This document shows positions 2,241 through 48,170 of a DNA stretch of 64,000 bases, piece after piece; position 1 is the stretch's first letter, and every line of letters begins with the position of its first letter. The translations under genes were made by a program, and so were the position numbers. The notes below the pieces were generated by a model. That model worked only from the letters and a program-made list of their open reading frames with translations, had not been told where the DNA came from and searched no databases. Location: the NCBI GenBank assembly GCA_964016885.1, contig OZ024741.1:17050001-17114000 (forward strand). The letters run 5' to 3'. This DNA is from Eledone cirrhosa (taxonomy: Eukaryota).

Positions 2241-2849
2241 ATATATATATCAACACACACACATATATATATATATATCAACACATCAACACAAACATAT
2301 CTCTACCCCCGGAGGTTTCATCCAGGGGTAGAGATATGTTTTGATGATTTGGGTATGTTTATGTACATTTTTTCTTCTAACTTTTATTCTGTACCTAATT
2401 GTGTATGGTTAACTATATGTCTAGTCATTTTCTACAGGCTATCAGAAATACTAGGTAAATCTTCTGTGGCTGTGAATCGCGGATAAAGGGTATCATTTAT
2501 TTATCTATTATTTCTTCATAGGGATATTTTAAACTTATAACCTCGTTTAAATGATTTTTTATGTGGTTGATTATGCTGATTGGGAGAAGAAATACTCTAT
2601 ATATTTTATCTAATGATTCTATGGACTTACTTTCTTATATATTGCTCTGATTGTTGATTATTTAATTAATTAATTCGTCATTGAGCCACACCGTGAATGG
2701 TTGCCAGAAACCATATATATATATATGGCTCTGTCTAGTTTATGTGTATGTAAACTTCTAAATTTTATATATATATATATATATATGTCCCAACGCTCTG
2801 ATACCATAAACACTATAAACACAGAGCTGGCATATCTAAGAACTGACTA

Positions 2850-16905: not shown

Positions 16906-16965
<60 letters not shown>

Positions 16966-17766
16966 TGTTTCTTTTATTTGCCACCAGGGCATCAAAAGTG
17001 GGACAAATACAATGGGGGGAGTTTACAAAACAAGGCGTCCTCAATAAGGAGGAGGCAATAACAATATATAAAAATAAAATAAAATATAACAAAAAATAAA
17101 ATGTATAACAAAGTCCTCAATAGAGAGGAGGCGCCTTGGGGGGTCGTACACACCCCCCCAAAAAGTATGCAACCCTTTTCCTCGGGAGCACAGAGAAGGG
17201 GTGCTCCCTTGGTCTTTCATCTTCCTCACCTATAGTCTGATGTAGAGTGAAGGCCCATTCACACGGGCCATTCTCGCCACTTTCACCCATCTTTCATAAA
17301 AACGGCTGGGATGCAGCACCTCTCTCTCCATCCTGATCCTTCTTCCGAAATGATATCGGAAGAAACGGACCAGTTGTTGGCCAGAGAGAAAGGTGCCTGA
17401 CCTCAGTCCTTTCAGACGCGTCCACCATACAACCTCTTTCGCCATGGCTATTACGCACAGAAACACCGCCTCTGCTTCATCTTTGAAGGGGGGAGGCAGC
17501 TTGATCATTACAATAGACTCGGTGGTCAACCGGATCGGTCCCACCCTTGACAGCAGTTGTTCGACATAGCCCCACAGATCGGCAATGTCCGAGCAGTGTA
17601 CCAATGCGTGTGCAACGGTTTCCTCGTCGCACACGCATCTGGGACAGATCTTTTTCGAGGGGTCCCTACCCGGGCGCCCGTGTCTGTAGAGCCTTTCTCG
17701 AACGAGCAGAGCCCTTCTGTAGCATTGCCAGGGACCTCTGGAAGTTATCCATGGGTCCCGGGCTGG

Positions 17767-17767
<1 letters not shown>
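16966..17767 (-). mobile_element. Tx1-clade non-LTR retrotransposon, 5'-truncated copy A
   Basis: Encodes the ORF2 C-terminal zinc finger (CPRC...ETVAHALVHC) and stops at 17230. The 3'UTR is homologous to 47585-47815. (GATA)n on both sides. Confidence 0.9.
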
Positions 17768-17816
<49 letters not shown>

Positions 17817-17817
<1 letters not shown>

Positions 17818-20370
17818 TTCTTTATTAGCCACAAGGGCGCAACAAGAAAGGGGACAATACAAAGACATGCCGGGGATTTTACATACAGTCGTGTAAAAAA
17901 TATAAAAACAAACAATTTCAACAATCGAAATCCCCAATAGGGGGGAGGCGCCACAAATGGGTTGTTTAATACCCCGTCGATAGAACAACCCTCAACTCAA
18001 GGAGCGTGTTGTGCAAGTGCTCCTTTCTTCCTTTTGCTCTCTTCCTCAACCTACAGGCTTATAAACAGAGAAGGCCCAATCACTCGGGCCATTTTCGCTT
18101 CATTCACCCACCTTTCAGTAAATTTACTGGGGTGCAGTGCCTCTCTCTCCACCCTGATTCTCCTTCTAAAGTGATACTTAAAGAATGGAATCAATTGTTG
18201 TCCGGAGAGAAAGGCATCTGTCCTCAGTCCTCTCAACCTCGTCCACCATATAACTTCTTTCACCATAGCCACCGTACAGAGGAAAACCACCTCTCTTTCG
18301 TTTTTGAAAGAGTCTGGCGGTTTGATCCTTACTATGGACTCGGCAGTCAACTGTATTTGTCCCATACGCGACAGCAGTTGTTCTGCATAGTTCCACAGGT
18401 CGCTTACGCCCGGGCAGTGTACAATTGCGTGCAGAACTGTTTCAATGTCCTGCGCACATCTTGGACACGTCCTCTTGGAAGGATCCCTGCCAGGGCGTCC
18501 GTGCCTGTAGATCTTGTCACGAACCGGTAGAGCTCCTCGGTAGCACTGCCAGGCCAGGGACCTCTGGAAGTTGTCCATAGGTCCCGGGCGGAAAGTCCTA
18601 CCAAACATACTGGTGAGCTCATCGTCTTCGACGCCCAGAGTCTCTCCGAGCACGTCGTCGCCCTTGTAACGTACAATCCCTCTATAGAATGTCGAAGTGG
18701 AGTATCCACTGATTGCTGCGCCCGCTTGCCAGAGGACTGTGAGCGCCTGAGCGCATTCAATGTGCCAGGCGCCCATCGTTTTCGGTCTTTTCTTCACCCA
18801 GGACTGCAGCTCCGTTAGCGAGACGAGCTGTGGGAAAGCCTGTCTCACAAACGGTGCCCACACCGGTTGGGGGTCGGTGAGGAATACCTGGAGATGCCGC
18901 AGCCTCAGCGCATGTTTGCGCATCATCAGCCACGGCATTCCCAGCCCTCCGTTGGAAGGGTGCTGACAGCAGACGGATCTCCTCACCAGCGGAGCCTGCT
19001 TCTTCCACAGAAACTGGAAGAGCATGCGTTCCATCTTGGCGAGGTGTTCACGGGGACAAGGTACGACAGTCAAGCGGTAGTAGATGACGGACGCTATGAA
19101 AGTGTTCGCCACCTCCGCTCGACCTTTCAAGGACAGTTTGCACTCTGCCCACTTCTGAGTGAGTGCAAACACCTTGGCCGTGACCTCGTTCCAGTTTTTC
19201 TCCACCTGGAGGTCTGGACCGAATCAGACCCCGAGCAATTTCACCGGTCCGTCCGTCCAGCGTCCAACGACGCTGTCGGATGTCATCGGTTTGCCTCTCC
19301 ATGTACCGAGTTGCAAACCGACAGACTTATCTGGGTTTAGTTTTGCTCCCGTCAGCGTTTCGTATTTTTTCAGTATGTTGCCGATCACCCCGATTTCCGA
19401 GGTGCTCGACACCATTACCGTCATGTCGTCGGCATAAGCCGACGCCGCTTTGCGCAGTCCCGGTTCTAGGGGGATGCCCTGCAACAGCTCCAATTTCCGC
19501 AGTAGTGGCTCTAGAGTCAATACATACAGAATGGAGGAGAGAGGGCATCCCTGTCGAATGGAACGCGTGATTGCGAACGGCTCCGATAGGTAGCCGTTCA
19601 CCTTGACCCTCGAGCAGATGCTGGTGTGCATCGCCTCGATCCATCCTCTGAACACGGGACCGAAACCGGCCGCCATGAGAACCGCTTCCAAGTATCGATG
19701 GTCGACCCTATCGAATGCCTTAGACTGATCCAAGTTGATCAGAGCCCCACCGAAGCCGGGTTTACTACCCACCCTCTCTATGATGTATCGCATGAGGTGG
19801 AGGTTGTCGTGTATGGACCTGGTCGGGATTGCACACGTTTGCGCTTTCCCTACCAGGTTCTCGACGACAAGCGCCAACCTCGTCGCTAGCACCTTGGCCA
19901 AAATCTTTAACTCTGTGTTGAGCAGAGTTATGGGCCTGAAGTTGTTAATTTCGTCCCCCTTGTTCTCGTCTTTCCTGATCAGCATTACTACGCCCTTGCC
20001 TGCAGAACTGGGAATTCTCCCGTTCTGCTGCCAATTGCAGTAGACGGCTTCGAGGACGCCAGAGAACAAGTCCGGCATGCCTATGTAAAATTCGTAGGGT
20101 AGACCATCTAGACCGGGTGACTTGCGTTTCCCGCAGCGGCCCAGAGCGTCCCGTATCTCAGTGTCCGTGATCGGTCTTTCGCAGAACTCGGCGTCCGTGT
20201 TCGAGAGACGCGGCAGGCCGTCGAGGTATGAACTAAAGTCCATTGCCCCGTTCGGCTCACCGTCGTTCTGCTCAAACAGTCGCGCAAAGTGCCGCTGAAA
20301 GGCCGCGCACATTTGCTTGGGGTCAAGTAGCACGCGTCCGTTTTGGTCTTTCAAAGACCGAATCGTGGAT
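17817..20370 (-). mobile_element. Tx1-clade non-LTR retrotransposon, 5'-truncated copy B
   Basis: Contains RT (QGCPLS, YADD) and the C-terminal CCHC finger; (GATA)n on both sides. Confidence 0.93.
18051..20370 (-). pseudogene. Tx1 ORF2 (RT plus zinc finger), 5'-truncated, one in-frame stop
   Basis: ORFs 19224-20393 and 18051-19205 are in frame and split by a TGA where copy C has TGG (VKLLGV*FGPD). Motifs KSPGLDG, FRPITLLN, DQSKAFDRV, YADD. Confidence 0.92.
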
Positions 20371-34684: not shown

Positions 34685-37600
34685 ACCACACGACCACAGC
34701 ACCACACCACCACACGACCACACCGCCACAGCACCACAGCACCACACCGCCACAGCACCACACCACCACACCACCACACCACCACACGACCACAGCACCA
34801 CACCACCACACGACCACACCACCACACGACCACACCACCACAGCACCACACCACCACACCACCACAGCACCACACGACCACAGCACCACACCACCACACG
34901 ACCACACCACCACACGACCACACCGCCACAGCACCACACCACCACACCACCACACCACCACACCACCACAGCACCACACGACCACACCACCACAGCACCA
35001 CACCACCACACGACCACACCACCACACCACCACAGCACCACACCACCACACGACCACACCACCACACGACCACACCGCCACAGCACCACACCACCACACG
35101 ACCACACCACCACACGACCACACCGCCACAGCACCACACCACCACACGACCACACCACCACACGACCACACCGCCACAGCACCACACCACCACACGACCA
35201 CACCACCACACCACCACACGACCACACCACCACAGCACCACACCACCACACGACCACACCACCACACCACCACAGCACCACACCACCACACGACCACACC
35301 ACCACACCACCACAGCACCACACCACCACACGACCACACCACCACACGACCACACCACCACACCATCACACCACCACACGACCACACCACCACACGACCA
35401 CACCGCCACAGCACCACACGACCACACCACCACACCGCCACACCACCACACCACCACACGACCACACCACCACACGACCACACCGCCACAGCACCACACG
35501 ACCACACCACCACACCGCCACACCACCACACCACCACACGACCACACGACCACACCACCACACCATCACACCACCACACGACCACACCACCACACGACCA
35601 CAGCACCACACCACCACACGACCACACCACCACACCATCACACCACCACACGACCACACCACCACACGACCACACCGCCACAGCACCACACCACCACACC
35701 ACCACACCACCACACGACCACACCACCACACGACCACAGCACCACACCACCACACGACCACACCACCACACGACCACACCACCACAGCACCACACCACCA
35801 CACCACCACAGCACCACACGACCACAGCACCACACCACCACACGACCACACCACCACACGACCACACCGCCACAGCACCACACCACCACACCACCACACC
35901 ACCACACCACCACAGCACCACACGACCACACCACCACAGCACCACACCACCACACGACCACACCACCACACCACCACAGCACCACACCACCACACGACCA
36001 CACCACCACACGACCACACCGCCACAGCACCACACCACCACACGACCACACCACCACACGACCACACCGCCACAGCACCACACCACCACACGACCACACC
36101 ACCACAAGACCACACCGCCACAGCACCACACCACCACACGACCACACCACCACACCACCACACGACCACACGACCACAGCACCACACCACCACACGACCA
36201 CACCACCACACCACCACAGCACCACACCACCACACGACCACACCACCACACCACCACAGCACCACACCACCACACGACCACACCACCACACGACCACACC
36301 ACCACACCATCACACCACCACACGACCACACCACCACACGACCACACCGCCACAGCACCACACGACCACACCACCACACCGCCACACCACCACACCACCA
36401 CACGACCACACCACCACACGACCACACCGCCACAGCACCACACGACCACACCACCACACCGCCACACCACCACACCACCACACCACCACACGACCACACC
36501 ACCACACCATCACACCACCACACGACCACACCACCACACGACCACAGCACCACACCACCACACGACCACACCACCACACCATCACACCACCACACGACCA
36601 CACCACCACACGACCACACCGCCACAGCACCACACCACCACACCACCACACCACCACACGACCACACCACCACACGACCACACCACCACACCGCCACACC
36701 ACCACACGACCACACGACCACACGACCACACCACCACACCACCACACCACCACACCACCACAGCACCACAGCACCACGCCACCACACGACCACTCCACCA
36801 CACCACCACACCACCATACGACCACAGCACCACACCACCACACCACCACACCGCCACACCACCACACCACCACACCACCACACCACCACAGCACCACACC
36901 ACCACAGCACCACACCATCACACGACCACACGACCACAGCACCACAGCACCACACCACCACACCGCCACAGCACCACACCACCACACCGCCACACCACCA
37001 CAGCACCACACCATCACAGCACCACAGCACCACACCGCCACAGCACCACACCATCACACCACCACACCGCCACACCACCACACCATCACACCACCACACC
37101 GCCACACCACCACAGCACCACACCATCACAGCACCACAGCACCACACCGCCACAGCACCACACCATCACACCACCACACCGCCACACCACCACAACGCCA
37201 CAGCACCACACCATCACACCACCACACCGCCACACCACCACAACGCCACAGCACCACACCATCACACCAGCACACCGCCACACCACCACAACGCCACAGC
37301 ACCACACCATCACACCACCACACGACCACACCACCACACCACCACAGCACCACACCACCACACCACCACACCACCACACCACCACAGCACCACACCACCA
37401 CACCACCACACCCCCACACCACCACACCACCACACCACCACAGCACCACACCACCTCAGCACCACACCACCACACCACCACACCACCACACCACCACACC
37501 ACCACACGACCACACCACCACACGACCACAGCACCACAGCACCACACCACCACACCACCACACCACCACGCCACCACACCACCACACCACCACAGCACCA

Positions 37601-40600
37601 CAGCACCACTGCACCACACCACCACACCACCACAGCACCACACCACCACAGCACCACACCACCACACGACCACACCGCCACAGCACCACACCACCACGCC
37701 GCCACACCACCACACGACCACAGCACCACACCACCACTCCACCACACCACCACACCACCACACGACCACACCACCACACCGCCACAGCACCACACAACCA
37801 CACCGCCACAGCACCACAGCACCACACCACCACACCACCACACGACCACACCACCACACCACCACACGACCACACCGCCACAGCACCACACAACCACACC
37901 GCCACACCACCACACCACCACAGCACCACACCACACCACACCACCACACCACCACAGCACCACACCACTACACCACCACACCGCCACAGCACCACAGCAC
38001 CACACCACCACACCACCACACGACCACACCCCCACACCCCCACACCACCACACCACCACACCACCACAGCACCACACCACACCACCACACCACCACACCA
38101 CCACACCACCACAGCACCACACCACCACACCACCACACGACCACACGACTACACCGCCACAGCACCACAGCACCACACCACCACACCACCACACGACCAC
38201 AGCACCACACCACCACAGCACCACAGCACCACGCCACCACACCACCACACCACCACAGCACCACACCACCACAGCACCACACCACCACAGCACCACACCA
38301 CCACACCACCACACGACCACACCACCACAGCACCACACCACCACAGCACCACAGCACCACACCACCACACCACCACAGCACCACACCACCACACCACCAC
38401 AGCACCACACCACCACACCACCACACCACCACAGCACCACACCACCACACCACCACAGCACCACACCACCACACCCCCACACAACCACAACACCACACGA
38501 CCACATCACAACCACACCACACCACCACAGCACCACAGCACCACACCACCACACCACCACACCACCACAGCACCACTGCACCACACCACCACACCACCAC
38601 AGCACCACACCACCACACCACCACAGCACCACACCACCACACCACCACAGCACCACACCACCACACCACCACACCACCACAGCACCACAGCACCACACCA
38701 CCACACCACCACACCACCACAGCACCACTGCACCACACCACCACACCACCACAGCACCACATCACTACACGACCACACGACCACAGCACCACACCACACC
38801 ACACGACCACAGCACCACACCACAACAGCACCACACCACCACACCACCACACCACCACACCACCACAGCACCACACCACCACACCACCACAGCACCACAT
38901 CACTACACGACCACACGACCACAGCACCACACCACACCACACGACCACAGCACCACACCACAACAGCACCACACCACACCACACCACCACACCACCACAC
39001 CACAACAGCACCACACCACACCACACCACCACACCACCATACCACCACATCACCACACCACCACACCATCACACCACCACACCACCACAACACCACACCA
39101 CCACAGCACCACACCACCACACCACCACAGCACCACACCACACCACACGACCACAGCACCACACCACCACACCACCACAGCACCACAGCACCACACCACC
39201 ACATCACCACACCACCACACCATCACACCACCACACCACCACACCACCACACCACCACAACACCACACGACCACAGCACCACACGACCACACGACCACAC
39301 CACCACACGACCACACGACCACACCACCACAGCACCACACCACCACACCACCACACCGCCACACCACCACACCACCACACCACCACACCACCACAGCACC
39401 ACACCACCACAGCACCACACCATCACACGACCACACGACCACAGCACCACAGCACCACACCACCACACCGCCACAGTACCACACCACCACACCGCCACAC
39501 CACCACAGCACCACACCATCACAGCACCACAGCACCACACCGCCACAGCACCACACCATCACACCACCACACCGCCACACCACCACACCATCACACCACC
39601 ACACCGCCACACCACCACAGCACCACACCATCACAGCACCACAGCACCACACCGCCACAGCACCACACCATCACACCACCACACCGCCACACCACCACAA
39701 CGCCACAGCACCACACCATCACACCACCACACCGCCACACCACCACAACGCCACAGCACCACACCATCACACCACCACACCGCCACACCACCACAACGCC
39801 ACAGCACCACACCATCACACCACCACACGACCACACCACCACACCACCACAGCACCACACCACCACACGACCACACCACCACACCACCACAGCACCACAC
39901 CACCACACCACCACACCCCCACACCACCACACCACCACACCACCACAGCACCACACCACCTCAGCACCACACCACCACACCACCACACCACCACACCACC
40001 ACACCACCACACGACCACACCACCACACGACCACAGCACCACAGCACCACACCACCACACCACCACACCACCACGCCACCACACCACCACACCACCACAC
40101 CACCACAGCACCACTGTACCACACCACCACACCACCACAGCACCACACCACCACAGCACCACACCACCACACGACCACACCGCCACAGCACCACACCACC
40201 ACGCCGCCACACCACCACACGACCACAGCACCACACCACCACTCCACCACACCACCACACCACCACACGACCACACCACCACACCGCCACAGCACCACAC
40301 AACCACACCGCCACAGCACCACAGCACCACACCACCACACCACCACACGACCACACCACCACACCACCACACGACCACACCGCCACAGCACCACACAACC
40401 ACACCGCCACACCACCACACCACCACAGCACCACACCACACCACACCACCACACCACCACAGCACCACACCACTACACCACCACACCGCCACAGCACCAC
40501 AGCACCACACCACCACACCACCACACGACCACACCCCCACACCCCCACACCACCACACCACCACACCACCACAGCACCACACCACACCACCACACCACCA

Positions 40601-42070
40601 CACCACCACAGCACCACACCACACCACACGACCACAGCACCACACCACAACAGCACCACACCACACCACACCACCACACCACCACACCACAACAGCACCA
40701 CACCACACCACCACACCACCATACCACCACATCACCACACCACCACACCATCACACCACCACACCACCACAACACCACACCACCACAGCACCACACCACC
40801 ACACCACCACAGCACCACACCACACCACACGACCACAGCACCACACCACCACAGCACCACAGCACCACACCACCACATCACCACACCACCACACCATCAC
40901 ACCACCACACCACCACACCACCACACCACCACAACACCACACGACCACAGCACCACACGACCACACGACCACACCACCACACGACCACACGACCACACCA
41001 CCACATCACCACACCACCACACCACCACACGACCACACGACCACACCACCAGACCACCACATGACCACATGACCACAGCACCACACCCCCACACCACCAC
41101 ATCACCACACGACCACAGCACCACACCACGACACCACCACACCACCACATCACCACAGCACCACAACACCACACCACCACACTACCACACGACCACAGCA
41201 CCACACCACCACATCACCTCACGACCACAGCACCACATCACCTAAGCACCACACCACCACACCACCACATCACCACACCACCACACCACACCACCACACC
41301 CCCACACAACCACAACACCACACGACCACATCACCACCACACCACACCACCACAGCACCACACCACCACACCACCACACCACCACACCACCACAGCACCA
41401 CATCACTACACGACCACACGACCACAGCACCACACCACACCACACGACCACAGCACCACACCACCACAGCACCACATCACCACACGACCACAGCACCACA
41501 GCACCACACCACCACATCACCACACGACCACAGCACCACACCACCACACCACCACACCACCACATCACCACAGCACCACAACACCACACCACCACACTAC
41601 CACACGACCACAGCACCACACCACCACATCACCTCACGACCACAGCACCACATCACCTAAGCACCACACCACCACACCACCACATCACCACACCACACCA
41701 CCACACCCCCACACAACCACAACACCACACGACCACATCACAACCACACCACACCACCACAGCACCACAGCACCACACCACCACACCACCACACCACCAC
41801 AGCACCACATCACTACACGACCACACGACCACAGCACCACACCACACCACACGACCACAGCACCACACCACCACAGCACCACACCACCACACCACCATAC
41901 CACCACATCACCACACCACCACACCACCACACGACCACAGCACCACACGACCACACCACCACACGACCACACCACCACACGACCACACCACCACACCACC
42001 AAATCACCACACCACCACACCACCACACCACCACATCACCACACGACCACAGCACCACACCGCCACACCA
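34685..42070. repeat. 7.4-kb octamer satellite (ACCACACC / ACCACACG / ACCACAGC variants) with higher-order duplications
   Basis: 8-bp period. ORF-track offsets show duplicated blocks at 944 bp, 2505 bp and 415 bp. Confidence 0.95.
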
Positions 42071-42318: not shown

Positions 42319-44159
42319 ATGGCGGAAAAGATGGCAGACATGTCTGCCATTAGCTCTGCCACGCCCCCCAAGTCTGAAGAACAAAACATAATTACAACAA
42401 AATTAGACAACGAAACAAACAAGGAAAATGAAAAAACAAATGTTAAGGAAAATGAGCAAACGGAAAACAAACAAACAGAAAATAATACAAATAACAACAG
42501 GGCAACTTTCGCCCAGAAAACAAAACAATCCATTACATACACACCAATTGACCTAACGGCCGCCAGAGAAAAACTGGCCGAAGCAAAGAAACACATTGTT
42601 TTGGGGGAGAACGGAATGTTTTCCATTAACCCCCCCCCCCCCCAGAATTCAAGAAAGCGATAACAGAGAACACAGTTCTCTTCAGAACAATCCTAAACCA
42701 AACAAGAAAGCCAGCACAGCCCAGCCAAATGGAGATAGAGTTGGTCCTAAAAGACTATATGAAGAATATTCTCTTCATACGAAAGGACCGACTCTATGGC
42801 AGCATTTCGGTCCTAACAAAAGACAAGGAAACGGCGGAGAAGCTTTCCCTAAGCCCACTCTCATCGACAACATACAGCTTCTATCCCTCCTACATGGGTA
42901 GAAGAACACAGAGAGTAAAAATACAAACAATGCTGCCCACAATGGACTTCTGGTGGGCTATTGCTGGCTTCATAGACATGGGCGAGGACACAGTGCTGTC
43001 AATGGGGAAGGCATCCGGAGATGCGTTCCTGGGAATGGGCCTCGACCTACTAGTCCAAATGAGGCCCGAAAGAATAGCACAAATGCCGGATCGCATCTGG
43101 CTGGATGAGCTCACCCCAATAGATATAATTGTAGAGGGGAGAAGACCAGCATGCTATTTATGCACGGAAAGGGGACACATTAAGGCTAACTACCCGAAAC
43201 GTATCCCCCCAAAAGGACTATTGCCCACACCCATCACAGACAGTACACCAACACCACCCACCTCCAAAAATACACTAATACCACACACAGCAAACAAAAT
43301 ACAAACACCACCAAGCACAACACAAACATCACCACCACCAGCACCAAACACAAGCACGACACAAAAATCACCACCACCATCACCAACACAAACACCACCA
43401 CCACCATTACCAACCACAAGCACGACACAAACAGCACCACCACCACCACAAAACGCATTCCAAACAAAAAAAAAAAAAACAGCAACAAATCTACCCCTCC
43501 CGCAAAAAAACAACAACCAGACACGACGTCCCTCCCACCTAGCGCTGAAGAGTTTCCCCCAACTTCTGAAGAAGAAGGAGGAGAAACCTTCAGACAAGTT
43601 AAAAGAAAAAAAAGAAAGCACGCACCCAGCACACCACAAATAACCCACACACAAACACCAACTCCAATAAAAAACACCCCACCCTCAACAAACAAAAATA
43701 AATCTGCGCCTCCCCTCTCCGAAACATTGACAGCATCACAAAAAAAAGACATTGCAATACACATATATAAATAAAAAAAACAAAAAACTGTTTAAATTAA
43801 TAAACAATAGCCCTTTGGTGCAGACCGAAGGGCCAAACTTTATCTCAACAGAGAACTTCACCTATTTAAAAATGATAAAGGTCCCTCTGGACCTTTATCG
43901 TTCCTTAAAAGAACAATTTAGACAGGACGTGAGCCCCCCCTGTTTAAAACCGTTAAATCGCGTCCTCTTGAAAGATTTCCCCATAACCTCCCCTCTCCCC
44001 GACACAACTCCAAACACCCCAACCCCACCACACTCGGGCACCCCCACACCACCACAAAACATCCCTCCACCCAACACACCTGACGCCATGGGAATTACAC
44101 AGCCCGGAGAGGTAGGTGCTTTTCTTTCTTCACTTTCAACACCAAAAAAGATCAGTTGA
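42319..44159 (+). pseudogene. Tx1 ORF1 (gag-like, zinc knuckle, Pro/Thr-rich), frameshifted
   Basis: ATG at 42319. Frameshift in the C homopolymer at ~42630-42643 and probably in the A run near 43470. The knuckle CYLCTERGHIKANY is CX2CX4HX4C with the last C changed to Y. Confidence 0.75.
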
Positions 44160-47100
44160 GAGTTGGCTGTTTGAACGCGCGTGGCCTGGGCTCAGCTTGG
44201 AAGCAAGCAAAGCTACTAAGTGACCTCAGGTCACGAAGTATAGATGTGATGGTTGTTTGCGAGAGTCGGATCAGCAGCGTGCGACAGCTGGCTCCCGCCT
44301 TCGATGACATTGAGATGCACGCATCTCTGTCAACCCGGAGGCGGGGGGGGGGAGTTGCTGTACTACTGGATAAACGTCTGGCTCTCGACGTACAGATTGT
44401 TCACTCGGACCCGGGGGGTCGAATACTGGTGCTGGACGTCGGAGGCGGTGAAGGCGGGGCTTTCAGACTGGTCGGTCTTTATGCCCCCTTCGGGGCTGAA
44501 AGAGCCGACTTCTTCCAGCGACTGGAGACTTTTCTAGGAACGTCGCGTTCCCTGCTTTTAGTGGGGGACTGGAATGGAATCCTAGATGCGCGTTGGGACT
44601 ATGCAGGGGCATGTCCCGATAGAGGGGGGTGTAGCAGCCTCAAAGGGTTACTCGATTGATTCGACCTGGTCGATAGATTTCGACTAGATTGTCCAACTGC
44701 GCCAACCTGGACCTGGGCAAACCGCAGTGGACAATCTAGATCGTACCTAGATAGGTTTTTGGTTAGGAGTAAGGATAGGGACGTATTTAGTTGTCCAGAA
44801 TTGATCATGGTTGGCTATTCAGATCACAAATTAGTGACCTGCGTGGTCACCCTTGATAGAACGCATAGACAGGGTCCCGGTTACTGGAAGATGAACTTGT
44901 CCTTGCCGGCAAAGAAAGATTACAGGAACCGGATTAGTAGCTTAGTTAAGATGCGGTTGACGGGAGCGATCGTCAACAGTAGGTGGTGGGTATCTCTAAA
45001 GAGAGAGATTAGAGTAAGTTCGATAGGTTACAGTAAGGAACTAGCGGCGAATAGAAATAGGAAGGAAAGGGAGTTAACAGATAAACTAGAAGAGGCGATT
45101 AGGAGCGGAGACGTAGCCAGAGTGTTAGCGGCGAGAACGGCGTTGAGCCAGTTCTTTGACGCGAAGCACGAAGGCTGCGTTGTCCGAAGTAAAATACGTG
45201 CTTTAGGAAACGAGGGGACCAAAGCTGTTAGCTGGGCCCGCGTGACAGAAGCCAAGAGTGGGATTAAATCCACCATTCGGTCTTTGCGAGACCAGGATGG
45301 ACGGGTGATCCTTGAACCTGAACGGATGTGCCAGGCCTTTCAAAGGCACTTTGCTCGATTGTTCGGAGGGGGCGTGGGGCCAGACGGGGATGTGGACTTC
45401 GGTCCATACCTCGACGGTCTACCGCGTCTTTCGAGCGGCGAAGCGGAGTGCTGCGAAAGGCCAATCACAGCCACTGAAATCGGGGAAGCGCTCAGCCAAT
45501 GCAGCAGACGCAAATCTCCGGGTCTCGATGGTCTACCATACGAACTTTATTTAGCTATGCCGATCTTGTTCTCCGAACTCCTCGAGGCTATCTATTGCAA
45601 CTGGCAACAGAACGGGAGAATTCCCTGTTCTGTGACCAAGGGCGTGGTCACGCTAGTGAGGAAGGACGAGAGCAAGGGGGACGACTTAAGTAACTTTAGG
45701 CCCATAACTCTGCTGAATGCAGAGTTACAGATTTTGGCCAAGGTGTTGGCGAAGAGGTTGGCGCTTGTGGTGGGTGGTTTGGTGGGAGACGCGCAGACAT
45801 GCGCTATCCCGTCCAGGTCCATTCACGACAACCTCCACCTCATGCGATACATCATAGAGAGGGTTGGCAACGAACCCGGCTTTGGTGGGGCCCTGATCAA
45901 CTTGGATCAATCTAAGGCGTTCGATAGGGTCGACCATGGTTACCTGGATGCGGTGCTAGCGGCGGCGGGCTTCGGACCCGTTTTCAGGGGCTGGATTTCT
46001 GCCATGCACAGTGGCAACATCTACTCTAGGATTAAAGTAAACGGCTACCTCTCGGAGCCGTTTCAAATCACCCGGTCCATCAGACAGGGGTGCCCCCTCT
46101 CCTCCCTTCTGTACGTATTGACTCTCGAGCCACTGCTGCGGAAGTTGGAGTTGCTGCGGGGCATACCCCTGGAACCGGGATTGCACAAAGCGGTCTCGGC
46201 CTATGCCGACGACGTAACAGTAATGGTGGCGGACGCCTCGGAAATCGGGGCGATCGCCACCCTACTGGAGGAATACGAAAGGCTGACGGGGGCTAGGCTG
46301 AACCGGGACAAGTCAGTCGGTTTGCAACTCGGAACGTGGAGGGGCAAACCGATGCCGTTAGACGGTGTCGTCGGGCGGTGGACGGAGGGCCCGGTGAAGC
46401 TGCTCGGGGTCTGGTTCGGACCGGACCTCCAGGTGGAGAAGAATTGGGGCGAGGTGACGAGCAGGATGTTTGCGCTGACCCAGAAGTGGGCCAAGTGCAA
46501 ACTATCACTGAAAGGTCGGGCGGAGGTGACGAACGCTTACATAGCGTCCGTCATCTGCTACCGCCTGACCGTCGTGCCTTGCCCCAAGGAAAAGATCACC
46601 ATCATGGAACGCATGCCCTTCCAGTTCCTCTGGAAGAAGCGGCCTCCCATGGTGAGGAGATCCATCTGCTGCCAGCACCCTTCGAAAGGAGGGCTGGGTA
46701 TGCCGTGGCTGTTGATGCGTAGGCACGCATTGAGGCTACGGCATCTACAGGTATTCCTCACCGGTCAGCCGGTGTGGGCCCCGTTTGTGAGGCGAGCCTT
46801 CCCACAGCTCGTCTCGCTCACCGAGCTGCAATCCTGGGTGAAGCAAAGACCGAGAAAACTGGGCAACTGGCACACCGAGTGTGCCCAGGCGCTCACGGCT
46901 ATCTGGCAAGCGGACCCGACTGTCAGTGGAGAATCCACCTCGACATTCTATAGAGGGCTGGTGGCTAGCAGGGGCGACGACACCCTTGGAGAGTCGCTAG
47001 GCATGGAGGAGGACGAACTGGCCAGCCTGTTATGTAGAACTTTCGGCCCGGGACCCATGGACAACTTCCAGAGGTCCCTAGCCTGGCAGTGTTACCGGGG

Positions 47101-47584
47101 GGCTCTGCCCGTTCGAGAAAAGCTCTACAGACACGGGCGCCCGGGCAGGGATCCAGCGAAAAAGATCTGTCCCAGATGCGTGCGCGACGAGGAAACCGTT
47201 GCGCATGCACTGGTACACTGCCCGGGCGTTGCCGATCTGTGGGGCTACGTCGAACGACTGCTGTCGCGTGTGGCGCCGATTCGATTAACCGCCGAGTCTG
47301 TGGTGAACATCAAGCCGCCGCCTCCCTTCAGAAACGAAGCTAAGGCGGTCTTTTTGTGCGTAATAGCCATGATGAAAGAGGTTGTGTGGTGGACGCGCCT
47401 GAAAGGTCTGAGGTCGGGTGACTTTCTCTCCGGCCATCACCTGGTTTACTTCTTCCGATACCACTTCGGAAGAAGGATCAGGATGGAGAGAGAAGTGCTT
47501 GGCCCCAGACAGTTTTATGAAAGGTGGGTGAAAGAAGCGAGAATGGCTCGTGTAAATGGGCCTTCTCTCTACATTGTTCTGTAG
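44156..47584 (+). pseudogene. Tx1 ORF2: APE endonuclease, reverse transcriptase, CCHC finger; one in-frame TGA
   Basis: LNARGL, VGDWN, YLDRF and SDHK (APE); QGCPLS and YADD (RT); CPRC..HALVHC. ORFs 44156-44659 and 44759-47584 are in frame and split by TGA at 44657-44659. Confidence 0.93.
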
Positions 47585-48170
47585 GTGAAGAAGTGAAGAG
47601 GAAAGGGGGAGCGCCTCCTCTCTGGGCTTCCACCGCGAAAAGGGTTGCACACTTTTCGGGGGTATGTGCAATCCCGAACACGCCCCCTCCCTTTTGAGGA
47701 CTTTTTATTATTATATTATTATTGTTATTCCTTTTTCTTTACTCGATTTATGTAAACTCCCCCACTGTGTATTTGTCCCCTTCTTTTGTGCCCTCGTGGC
47801 AAATAAATAGAAATTTATCTGTCTGTCTGTCTGTCTGTCTGACTGCTTATCTGTCTGTCTGTCTGTCCTATGTCAATGCCTGTAAGCATGTTACCAAATC
47901 TGAATTTAAAAGATGTTTGTTTCAATATATGAAGCCCACACCACTGTGTTGTGGTGGGTTGGAGGATGTGGGAGTGGTGGTGCTGGTGAAGAAAGTAGAA
48001 ATAGTGGGGTTGAGATGGGCCGTGTGCGGGGTTAGGGACGAAAAGGGGTAGGGGTGTGAATGGGTGTTAGTTCCTTTATTCATAGTTGAAAATTCTATCA
48101 AGTTTGGAATAAAAAAAATGATAAATCGTAATGAAGAGATAGATAGATAGAAGGAGAGAGAGAGAGAGAG

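Follow-up and report, generated by a model that had tools for sequence, protein, structure and literature searches.

The window analysed here, a stretch of 64,000 nucleotides (G000:C2:17050001-17114000) within a 3.0-Gb genome, holds three 5'-truncated copies of one LINE family, A, B and C, which are 74-78% alike and whose ORF2 stops adjoin three stretches of hairpins (HP1 to HP3). The features of these copies and of their 3'UTRs are as follows:

16906-16965, minus strand: tail and target repeat of copy A, (TATC)15
16973-16991, minus strand: HP4 and AAUAAA of copy A
17014-17027, minus strand: predicted distal pseudoknot strand of copy A
17038-17053, minus strand: duplicated HP3 inside the linker of copy A, common to the A/F2 subfamily
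17114-17208, minus strand: HP3 (17114-17129), HP2 (17141-17175) and HP1 (17184-17208) of copy A
17233-17763, minus strand: copy A, a short 5'-truncated ORF2 end that begins directly after the tail of copy B
17767-17817, minus strand: tail of copy B, (TATC)13, lying between B and A
17821-17838, minus strand: HP4 (3 bp in this copy) and AAUAAA of copy B
17871-17883, minus strand: predicted distal pseudoknot strand of copy B, CCCCG, matching loop CGGGG
17931-18024, minus strand: HP3 (17931-17946), HP2 (17959-17991) and HP1 (18000-18024) of copy B
18054-20370, minus strand: copy B, 5'-truncated ORF2 (RT, zf-RVT) with one in-frame stop
44084-47584, plus strand: copy C, 5'-truncated ORF2 (APE endonuclease, RT, zf-RVT) with one in-frame stop (44657-44659)
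47607-47631, plus strand: HP1 of copy C
47642-47674, plus strand: HP2 of copy C (predicted pseudoknot stem 1)
47657-47663, plus strand: G-run in the HP2 loop of copy C, predicted 5' strand of the long-range helix
47685-47700, plus strand: HP3 of copy C
47701-47750, plus strand: U-rich linker of copy C, of a length that varies between subfamilies
47751-47763, plus strand: distal A-tract and C-run of copy C, predicted 3' strand of the long-range helix
47773-47779, plus strand: conserved UUGUCCC box of copy C, without a covarying partner
47789-47807, plus strand: terminal hairpin HP4 (4 bp, 5-nt loop) and AAUAAA of copy C
47816-47867, plus strand: microsatellite tail and target of copy C, TATC and then TCTG units

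Motif matches for this LINE number more than 21,000 genome-wide, and four ORF2-end patterns account for 14,785, 6,521, 807 and 563 matches in sets that overlap slightly. A full-length copy (L097) carries a 702-aa frame with a CCHC knuckle, C-X2-C-X4-H-X4-C as read by eye, and an ORF2 of 1,138 aa with APE endonuclease, RT and zf-RVT domains (PF03372, PF00078 and PF13966). In a comparison with solved structures, the RT falls in the L1 group and not with R2 (177 bits for human L1 ORF2p vs 75 bits for R2), and the nearest named homologue, at 66%, is from Argonauta hians, which points to an octopod host. On these sequence features the family is classified as an L1/Tx1-type LINE, the Tx1 label being assigned by anatomy and not by RT phylogeny. 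The family includes many near-identical full-length copies, and passages of PMC13282606 give L1-Tx1 families of Octopus vulgaris as recently active.

Full-length copies also occur in head-to-tail arrays with a spacing of 5.7-6.9 kb, each inside the microsatellite tail of the next one and with mixed subfamilies within arrays (C3:29927762-29939567, C3:309882193-309899929 and C1:55423957-55449902). In addition, the window contains a 7.4-kb array (34685-42070) of the 8-mer ACCACACC, present in 922 copies with 85% matches; this array yields stop-free frames of more than 2,100 codons, and no test run here indicates a gene.

The tails of the LINE copies are identical to the microsatellite in which the copies sit, and copies nest in one another's tails, A and B being flanked by TATC on both sides. 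Among 151 distinct 3' ends, 146 continue into TATC-like (79) or ATT-like (67) repeats, which points to a repeat target preference; one end is poly(A) and four are of other kinds.

In order to compare 3'UTRs across the family, we collected 231 ORF2-end matches in 160 loci together with the window; 213 had a full 3' end, and the 169 distinct sequences among them formed 38 clusters. From 24 clusters, 25 representatives were picked, and the 14 clusters omitted consist of near-duplicates or visibly deleted or decayed copies, an omission that favours intact structure. The hairpin alignment A4 comprises 22 representatives; the other three, which have a short HP1 and were misaligned by MAFFT, were reused as held-out tests and in a second, structure-blind alignment of 13 sequences (A5). 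A single genome supplied all the sequences, and the assignment to lineage groups was made by eye with the UTRs in view. An ORF2 tree supports F0, F4 and F13/H/I as groups and separates F8 from B. At third codon positions of ORF2, the A, B, C and ATT lineages are just 48-71% identical, so the pairing described below has outlasted heavy neutral change.

A preliminary description of this DNA had proposed three covarying hairpins after the ORF2 stop as a structured RNA. All the HP1-HP3 stems it quoted are found in their places on the LINE sense strand of A, B and C, together with the second HP3 of copy A (17038-17053). The CGCC before HP3, described as invariant, is constant in these three copies, whereas other subfamilies carry other letters there; likewise, the 6-nt loop of HP3 is kept where the stem is CUC/GAG, but subfamilies with CCCC/GGGG often slip to a 4-nt loop in the energy model. 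HP1 lies after a purine-rich spacer, about 20 nt past the ORF2 stop, and is reduced to 5 bp in one lineage, while the HP3 loop reads YCUAUU and is near-invariant. HP1-HP3 cover no more than the 5' half of the conserved 3'UTR, which extends over about 230-300 nt.

The three copies of the window alone are no proof of structure, because singly they fold no better than shuffled sequences (z of -1.16, -1.29 and -0.30 for A, B and C); HP2 does not appear in the minimum-energy structure when A or C is folded by itself. The 25 representatives, folded singly, give a median z of -1.7, the same as for the reverse strand. The case for structure rests on comparison across subfamilies. In A4, 90.5% of 528 stem cells are paired vs 83.6% after shuffling, with 0 of 500 shuffles as high in a comparison that ignores the relatedness of the sequences, and 35-58% of cells are paired when partners are slid. 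Two-sided changes are present in 10 of the 24 pairs (HP1 4, HP2 5, HP3 1), and RNAalifold predicts all three helices unaided, HP3 in a slipped register. Covariation, when put to an R-scape-like test with a tree-based null, holds in part: pairs 59-81 in HP2 (E 0.016) and 104-113 in HP3 (E 0.049) pass, but none does in HP1, and a test over all 5,671 column pairs finds none significant. At the level of single pairs the support is therefore modest, 2 of 24 proposed pairs passing, and HP1 receives none. When the window is searched at E<0.05 with a covariance model of A4, the matches are A, B, C and the extra HP3 and no others. The short-HP1 lineage is recovered by a model from whose training it was left out: its 3'UTRs make up 12 of 15 among the matches listed (E 3e-7 to 0.04). 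The proposal of a structured RNA without an Rfam match in an L1/Tx1-type 3'UTR is supported by the 22-sequence comparison and by the Rfam searches given below.

Three A-type copies (L039, L044 and L006) show an extra tandem duplication of the 3' half of HP3 and the linker; as aligned, the linker tolerates insertions. Upstream, the final codons of ORF2 (MARVNGP; window 17266-17249 on the minus strand, 47546-47563 on the plus strand) could form a GGCCC/GGGCC hairpin; it is inseparable from protein constraint, and no partner for it stood out among 120 segment pairs.

A pseudoknot between the HP2 loop and the CGCC-pyrimidine tract had also been put forward. This candidate has no partner specificity in a swap test (9,244 of 20,000 swaps equally good, rank 213/720) and was dropped. 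The HP2 loop covaries instead with a block 74-122 nt after the end of HP2 and 49-77 nt before AAUAAA, which lies outside the span first described. When each loop is paired with its own block, the energies sum to -316.1 vs -262.5 ± 10.0 for swaps, with 0 of 20,000 as good; one of the 25 blocks was mis-anchored in this test and placed correctly in the scan of segment pairs. Over six lineages, own loop with own block ranks 1/720, and two control windows are null. Among the 120 segment pairs scanned, only the stem of HP2 itself (z -6.5) and loop with block (z -4.9) rank 1/720. The strands are matched by lineage: loop GGGGG goes with block CCCCC in A and C, CGGGG with CCCCG in B, GUGGGGU with ACCCCAC plus a further GGAC/GUCC in F4, UGGGC-UUUCU with AGAAA-U-GCCCA in F0, and UGUGG-UUU with AAA-CC-CACA in F13. 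Taken together, these comparisons make the HP2 loop look pseudoknotted with the distal block, a partner different from the one first proposed.

In A5, which was aligned without regard to structure, 77% of the cells of the pseudoknot are paired and 4 of 11 pairs show two-sided changes. Pair 67-229 is UA in seven sequences and GC in three, with none unpaired, and pair 66-230 is GC in nine and UA in two; the UUU/AAA run of three U-A pairs is near-invariant, and two positions pair in just 3-4 of the 13 sequences. With the pseudoknot strands engaged, HP2 forms with P>0.5 in 24 of 25 sequences vs 13 of 25 when they are free, partly by construction, the G-run being blocked; under this condition HP3 keeps its local pairing in 21 of 25, frequently with the register slipped. 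Some results speak against the pseudoknot. Of 15 held-out copies, most of them old, 11 have a best downstream window (out of 112-196) that overlaps the block, but the own loop does better than a shuffled loop at p<0.05 in only two; in L147, L154, L142, L131 and L158, the own block pairs no better than the blocks of others.

Beyond the distal block, the 3' end is ordered as UUGUCCC box, HP4, AAUAAA and (TATC)n or (ATT)n tail. HP4, which was missing from the preliminary description, is a conserved terminal stem-loop adjoining the repeat tail. It is found in 25 of 25 representatives with 3-4 bp and a 5-nt loop, its pair 284-295 (A5) is GC in nine sequences and AU in three, and AAUAAA follows it directly in 24 of 25. 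No covarying partner for the UUGUCCC box stood out among the 120 segment pairs; a pairing of the HP3 loop with AAUAAA, considered in the same scan, did not stand out either and was discarded. In a small sample of 30 ends checked for a SINE-like partner sharing the tail, no SINE head was found: 25 reach more than 500 nt into ORF2, four are short truncated or decayed ends and one is unassigned.

Rfam searches gave nothing near the gathering score for copies A and B (best 27.6 bits vs 75) and no match at E<=0.5 for the 3'UTRs of five other loci. A first metagenome scan for distant relatives found none. Among 80 distant LINE loci (25-36% identity to a homologue), many of whose contigs stop short of the 3'UTR, no sense-strand 3'UTR matched model R1 (best 13.1 bits, E 0.21). 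The tails of two divergent homologues, used as queries against the genome, reached at most about 40% identity, so that no closer family of theirs came to light. Contigs from two runs of one study, compared with copy C with a view to expression, are uninformative about RNA ends, and a motif taken from a loose end in that comparison has 0 matches in the genome. The openly accessible literature on LINE tails and octopus repeats that we covered yielded no description of this structure. Structured LINE tails are already known, a pseudoknotted one included; the novelty lies in finding, in an element of L1/Tx1 type, a UTR with four hairpins and a predicted long-range pseudoknot whose strands covary by lineage.

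A LINE 3'UTR is selected only via the copies that retrotranspose, and therefore the fold must help the RNA to be made, to survive or to be copied. The roles suggested in the preliminary description, namely ORF2 binding, stability and 3' processing, are still the right candidates. The 3'UTR appears to keep the pairing of four hairpins and a long-range helix and, on balance, we lean toward the idea that the predicted pseudoknotted fold serves ORF2p as the handle for its own RNA and for the start of TPRT. In such a mechanism, the RNA would fold as an H-type pseudoknot with HP2 as stem 1 and loop with distal block as stem 2, which extends to the 3' end of the loop and could stack on HP2, compacting the UTR and looping out HP3 and the U-rich linker. 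ORF2p would bind this fold, reading the HP3 loop and HP4. The endonuclease would nick a strand of (GATA)n or (AAT)n repeats; the 3' end of this strand would anneal to the matching RNA tail and prime copying, and copying would then unwind HP4 and the pseudoknot. An A.C mismatch near the base of HP2, present in 25 of the 30 nearest C-type copies, counts against this model, as the subfamily that bears it nonetheless has many near-identical, long-ORF copies.

The main rival, possible if on the unlikely side, is that the fold serves 3'-end formation or RNA stability, by presenting UGUA and AAUAAA to the cleavage-polyadenylation machinery, by stopping read-through in tandem arrays or as a triplex-type shield of the 3' end; it may act jointly with recognition by ORF2p. 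UGUA is a CFIm site, and the final 80 nt of the 25 sequences contain it 61 times vs 23.6 ± 4.2 in shuffled ones, a count that is not independent because the sequences are related. The position of AAUAAA directly after HP4 in 24 of 25 representatives and the head-to-tail nesting of copies are in line with this notion, and excerpts of PMC13541005 describe some retrotransposon RNAs as shielded from deadenylation by triple helices. The inserted ends, however, carry a poly(A) run in only 1 of 151 cases, the U-tract is missing from the B and F4 lineages, and the Rfam searches with copies A and B and with the five other loci turned up no ENE family.

A role in translation, be it in ORF2 termination, in passing nascent ORF2p to the RNA that encodes it (cis preference) or in avoiding decay, is very unlikely: the purine-rich spacer and the position of HP1 after the stop are kept in all subfamilies, as this role would have it, but HP1 is statistically the weakest helix, with only 5 bp in one lineage, and the best-supported helix reaches within 50-75 nt of the 3' end. 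Slightly less credible again is the idea that the complementarity reflects the inheritance of one ancestor and the composition of G/C runs, with no selection on RNA structure. The weak single-sequence z-scores, the few individually significant pairs and the shuffled-loop control, which mostly fails in old copies, would suit such an origin; two-sided changes in HP1, HP2, HP3, the pseudoknot and HP4, the partner-specific match of segments 75-120 nt apart, of which control segments show none, and the pairing kept while synonymous sites have far diverged all argue against it. Ribozymes are known in other non-LTR elements, yet self-cleavage of this 3'UTR, which would free the element RNA from read-through transcripts and be useful given tandem nesting, is the least probable reading and finds no support in the sequence despite a pseudoknotted multi-helix fold, since no such family matched in Rfam (E<=10 for A and B, E<=0.5 for five other loci), few unpaired positions are invariant and a cut inside the UTR would take away the 3' end needed for copying.

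Recognition of the fold by ORF2p, the reading we favour, has its closest precedents in other non-LTR elements. According to excerpts of PMC11601368 and of the review PMC12503042, A-clade R2 proteins bind a pseudoknot-hinge-stem in the 3'UTR, and insertion is broken and restored as the pairing is broken and restored. As in the avian and turtle R2 elements of PMC11601368 (excerpts), a pseudoknot, here predicted by comparison, is followed in a non-LTR 3'UTR by a small 3' stem that immediately precedes the priming end, and divergent sequences have an architecture in common. The R2 module in those excerpts is, however, compact, about 65 nt, with a 6-nt hinge and an RLE-type protein, which is not what is found here: the present strands lie 75-120 nt apart, with HP3 and a linker rich in U between them, and belong to a LINE of APE type that has two ORFs, an AAUAAA and a microsatellite tail.

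With regard to HP4, PMC4176376 reports that zebrafish ZfL2 ORF2p binds its cognate 3' terminal stem-loop. HP4 fits the terminal stem-loop with compensatory changes beside a repeat tail seen in the stringent tails of ZfL2-1/2 and UnaL2 (PMC4176376, in part) and of monocot L1 (PMC3747384, in part), where the stem-loop is recognized in cis by ORF2p. Those tails are described as a single stem-loop, often common to a SINE, whereas four hairpins and a long-range helix are found here, with no SINE partner in 30 ends.

An H-type pseudoknot is also used with a reverse transcriptase in telomerase RNA, whose P2b/P3 pseudoknot contains a U.A-U triple helix (bioRxiv 10.1101/2025.10.01.679706 and PMC13541005, both in excerpt). 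The short-HP1 ATT lineage has a layout resembling the one in those excerpts: loop 1 is U-rich, and stem 2 contains a UUU/AAA run beside which one base is unpaired. Unlike telomerase RNA, the present 3'UTR lacks a template repeat within the fold, has a very long loop 3 and matches no telomerase family in Rfam. The A and C types have a U-tract without a U-A run, and the B and F4 lineages have no U-tract; because B and F4 lack those features, the triplex likeness stays a lead. The likeness of the short-HP1 ATT pseudoknot may extend to finer features of the human telomerase sequence. In a bolder and clearly improbable version of the model, this L1/Tx1-group LINE would load its RT on a long-range, telomerase-like triple-helical pseudoknot, with the UTR folded back to place HP4 and the tail at the active site and the strands co-evolving as a subfamily-specific lock of RNA, protein and target.

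The wider question is the way in which LINEs of the L1 group select their own RNA: mammalian L1 reads poly(A), and recognition by structure has been reported chiefly for R2 and L2 and, in addition, for a single L1 lineage of plants. In this regard, the naturally swapped strand pairs and the near-identical full-length copies offer a ready-made test of stringent recognition in the L1 group, and the 3'UTR could be put to use as a defined template module in tools that direct insertions to microsatellites.

As to the target, excerpts of PMC4494074 describe the Tx1 elements Kibi, Koshi and crocodilian Tx1 as inserting into simple repeats. The present family resembles them in simple-repeat insertion and in its L1-group ORF2 but, unlike them, targets (TATC)n and (ATT)n; the passages of that paper that were searched hold 0 mentions of UTR, stem or secondary structure. 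The tail and target repeat tracks lineage, being mostly (TATC)n where ORF2 ends in GPSL and mostly (ATT)n where it ends in GPTL. These lineage-linked tails suggest a switch in endonuclease specificity that would be mappable. One copy (L012, about 2615-2640, plus strand) ends in a poly(A) run with TATC repeats behind it, which hints at polyadenylation of the transcripts after AAUAAA and at priming that usually takes place inside the repeat. In addition, a recurring repeat with a tRNA-like head lies directly 3' of the (ATT)n tail in L284, L290 and L306; it is probably either a SINE with the same target or a common neighbour.
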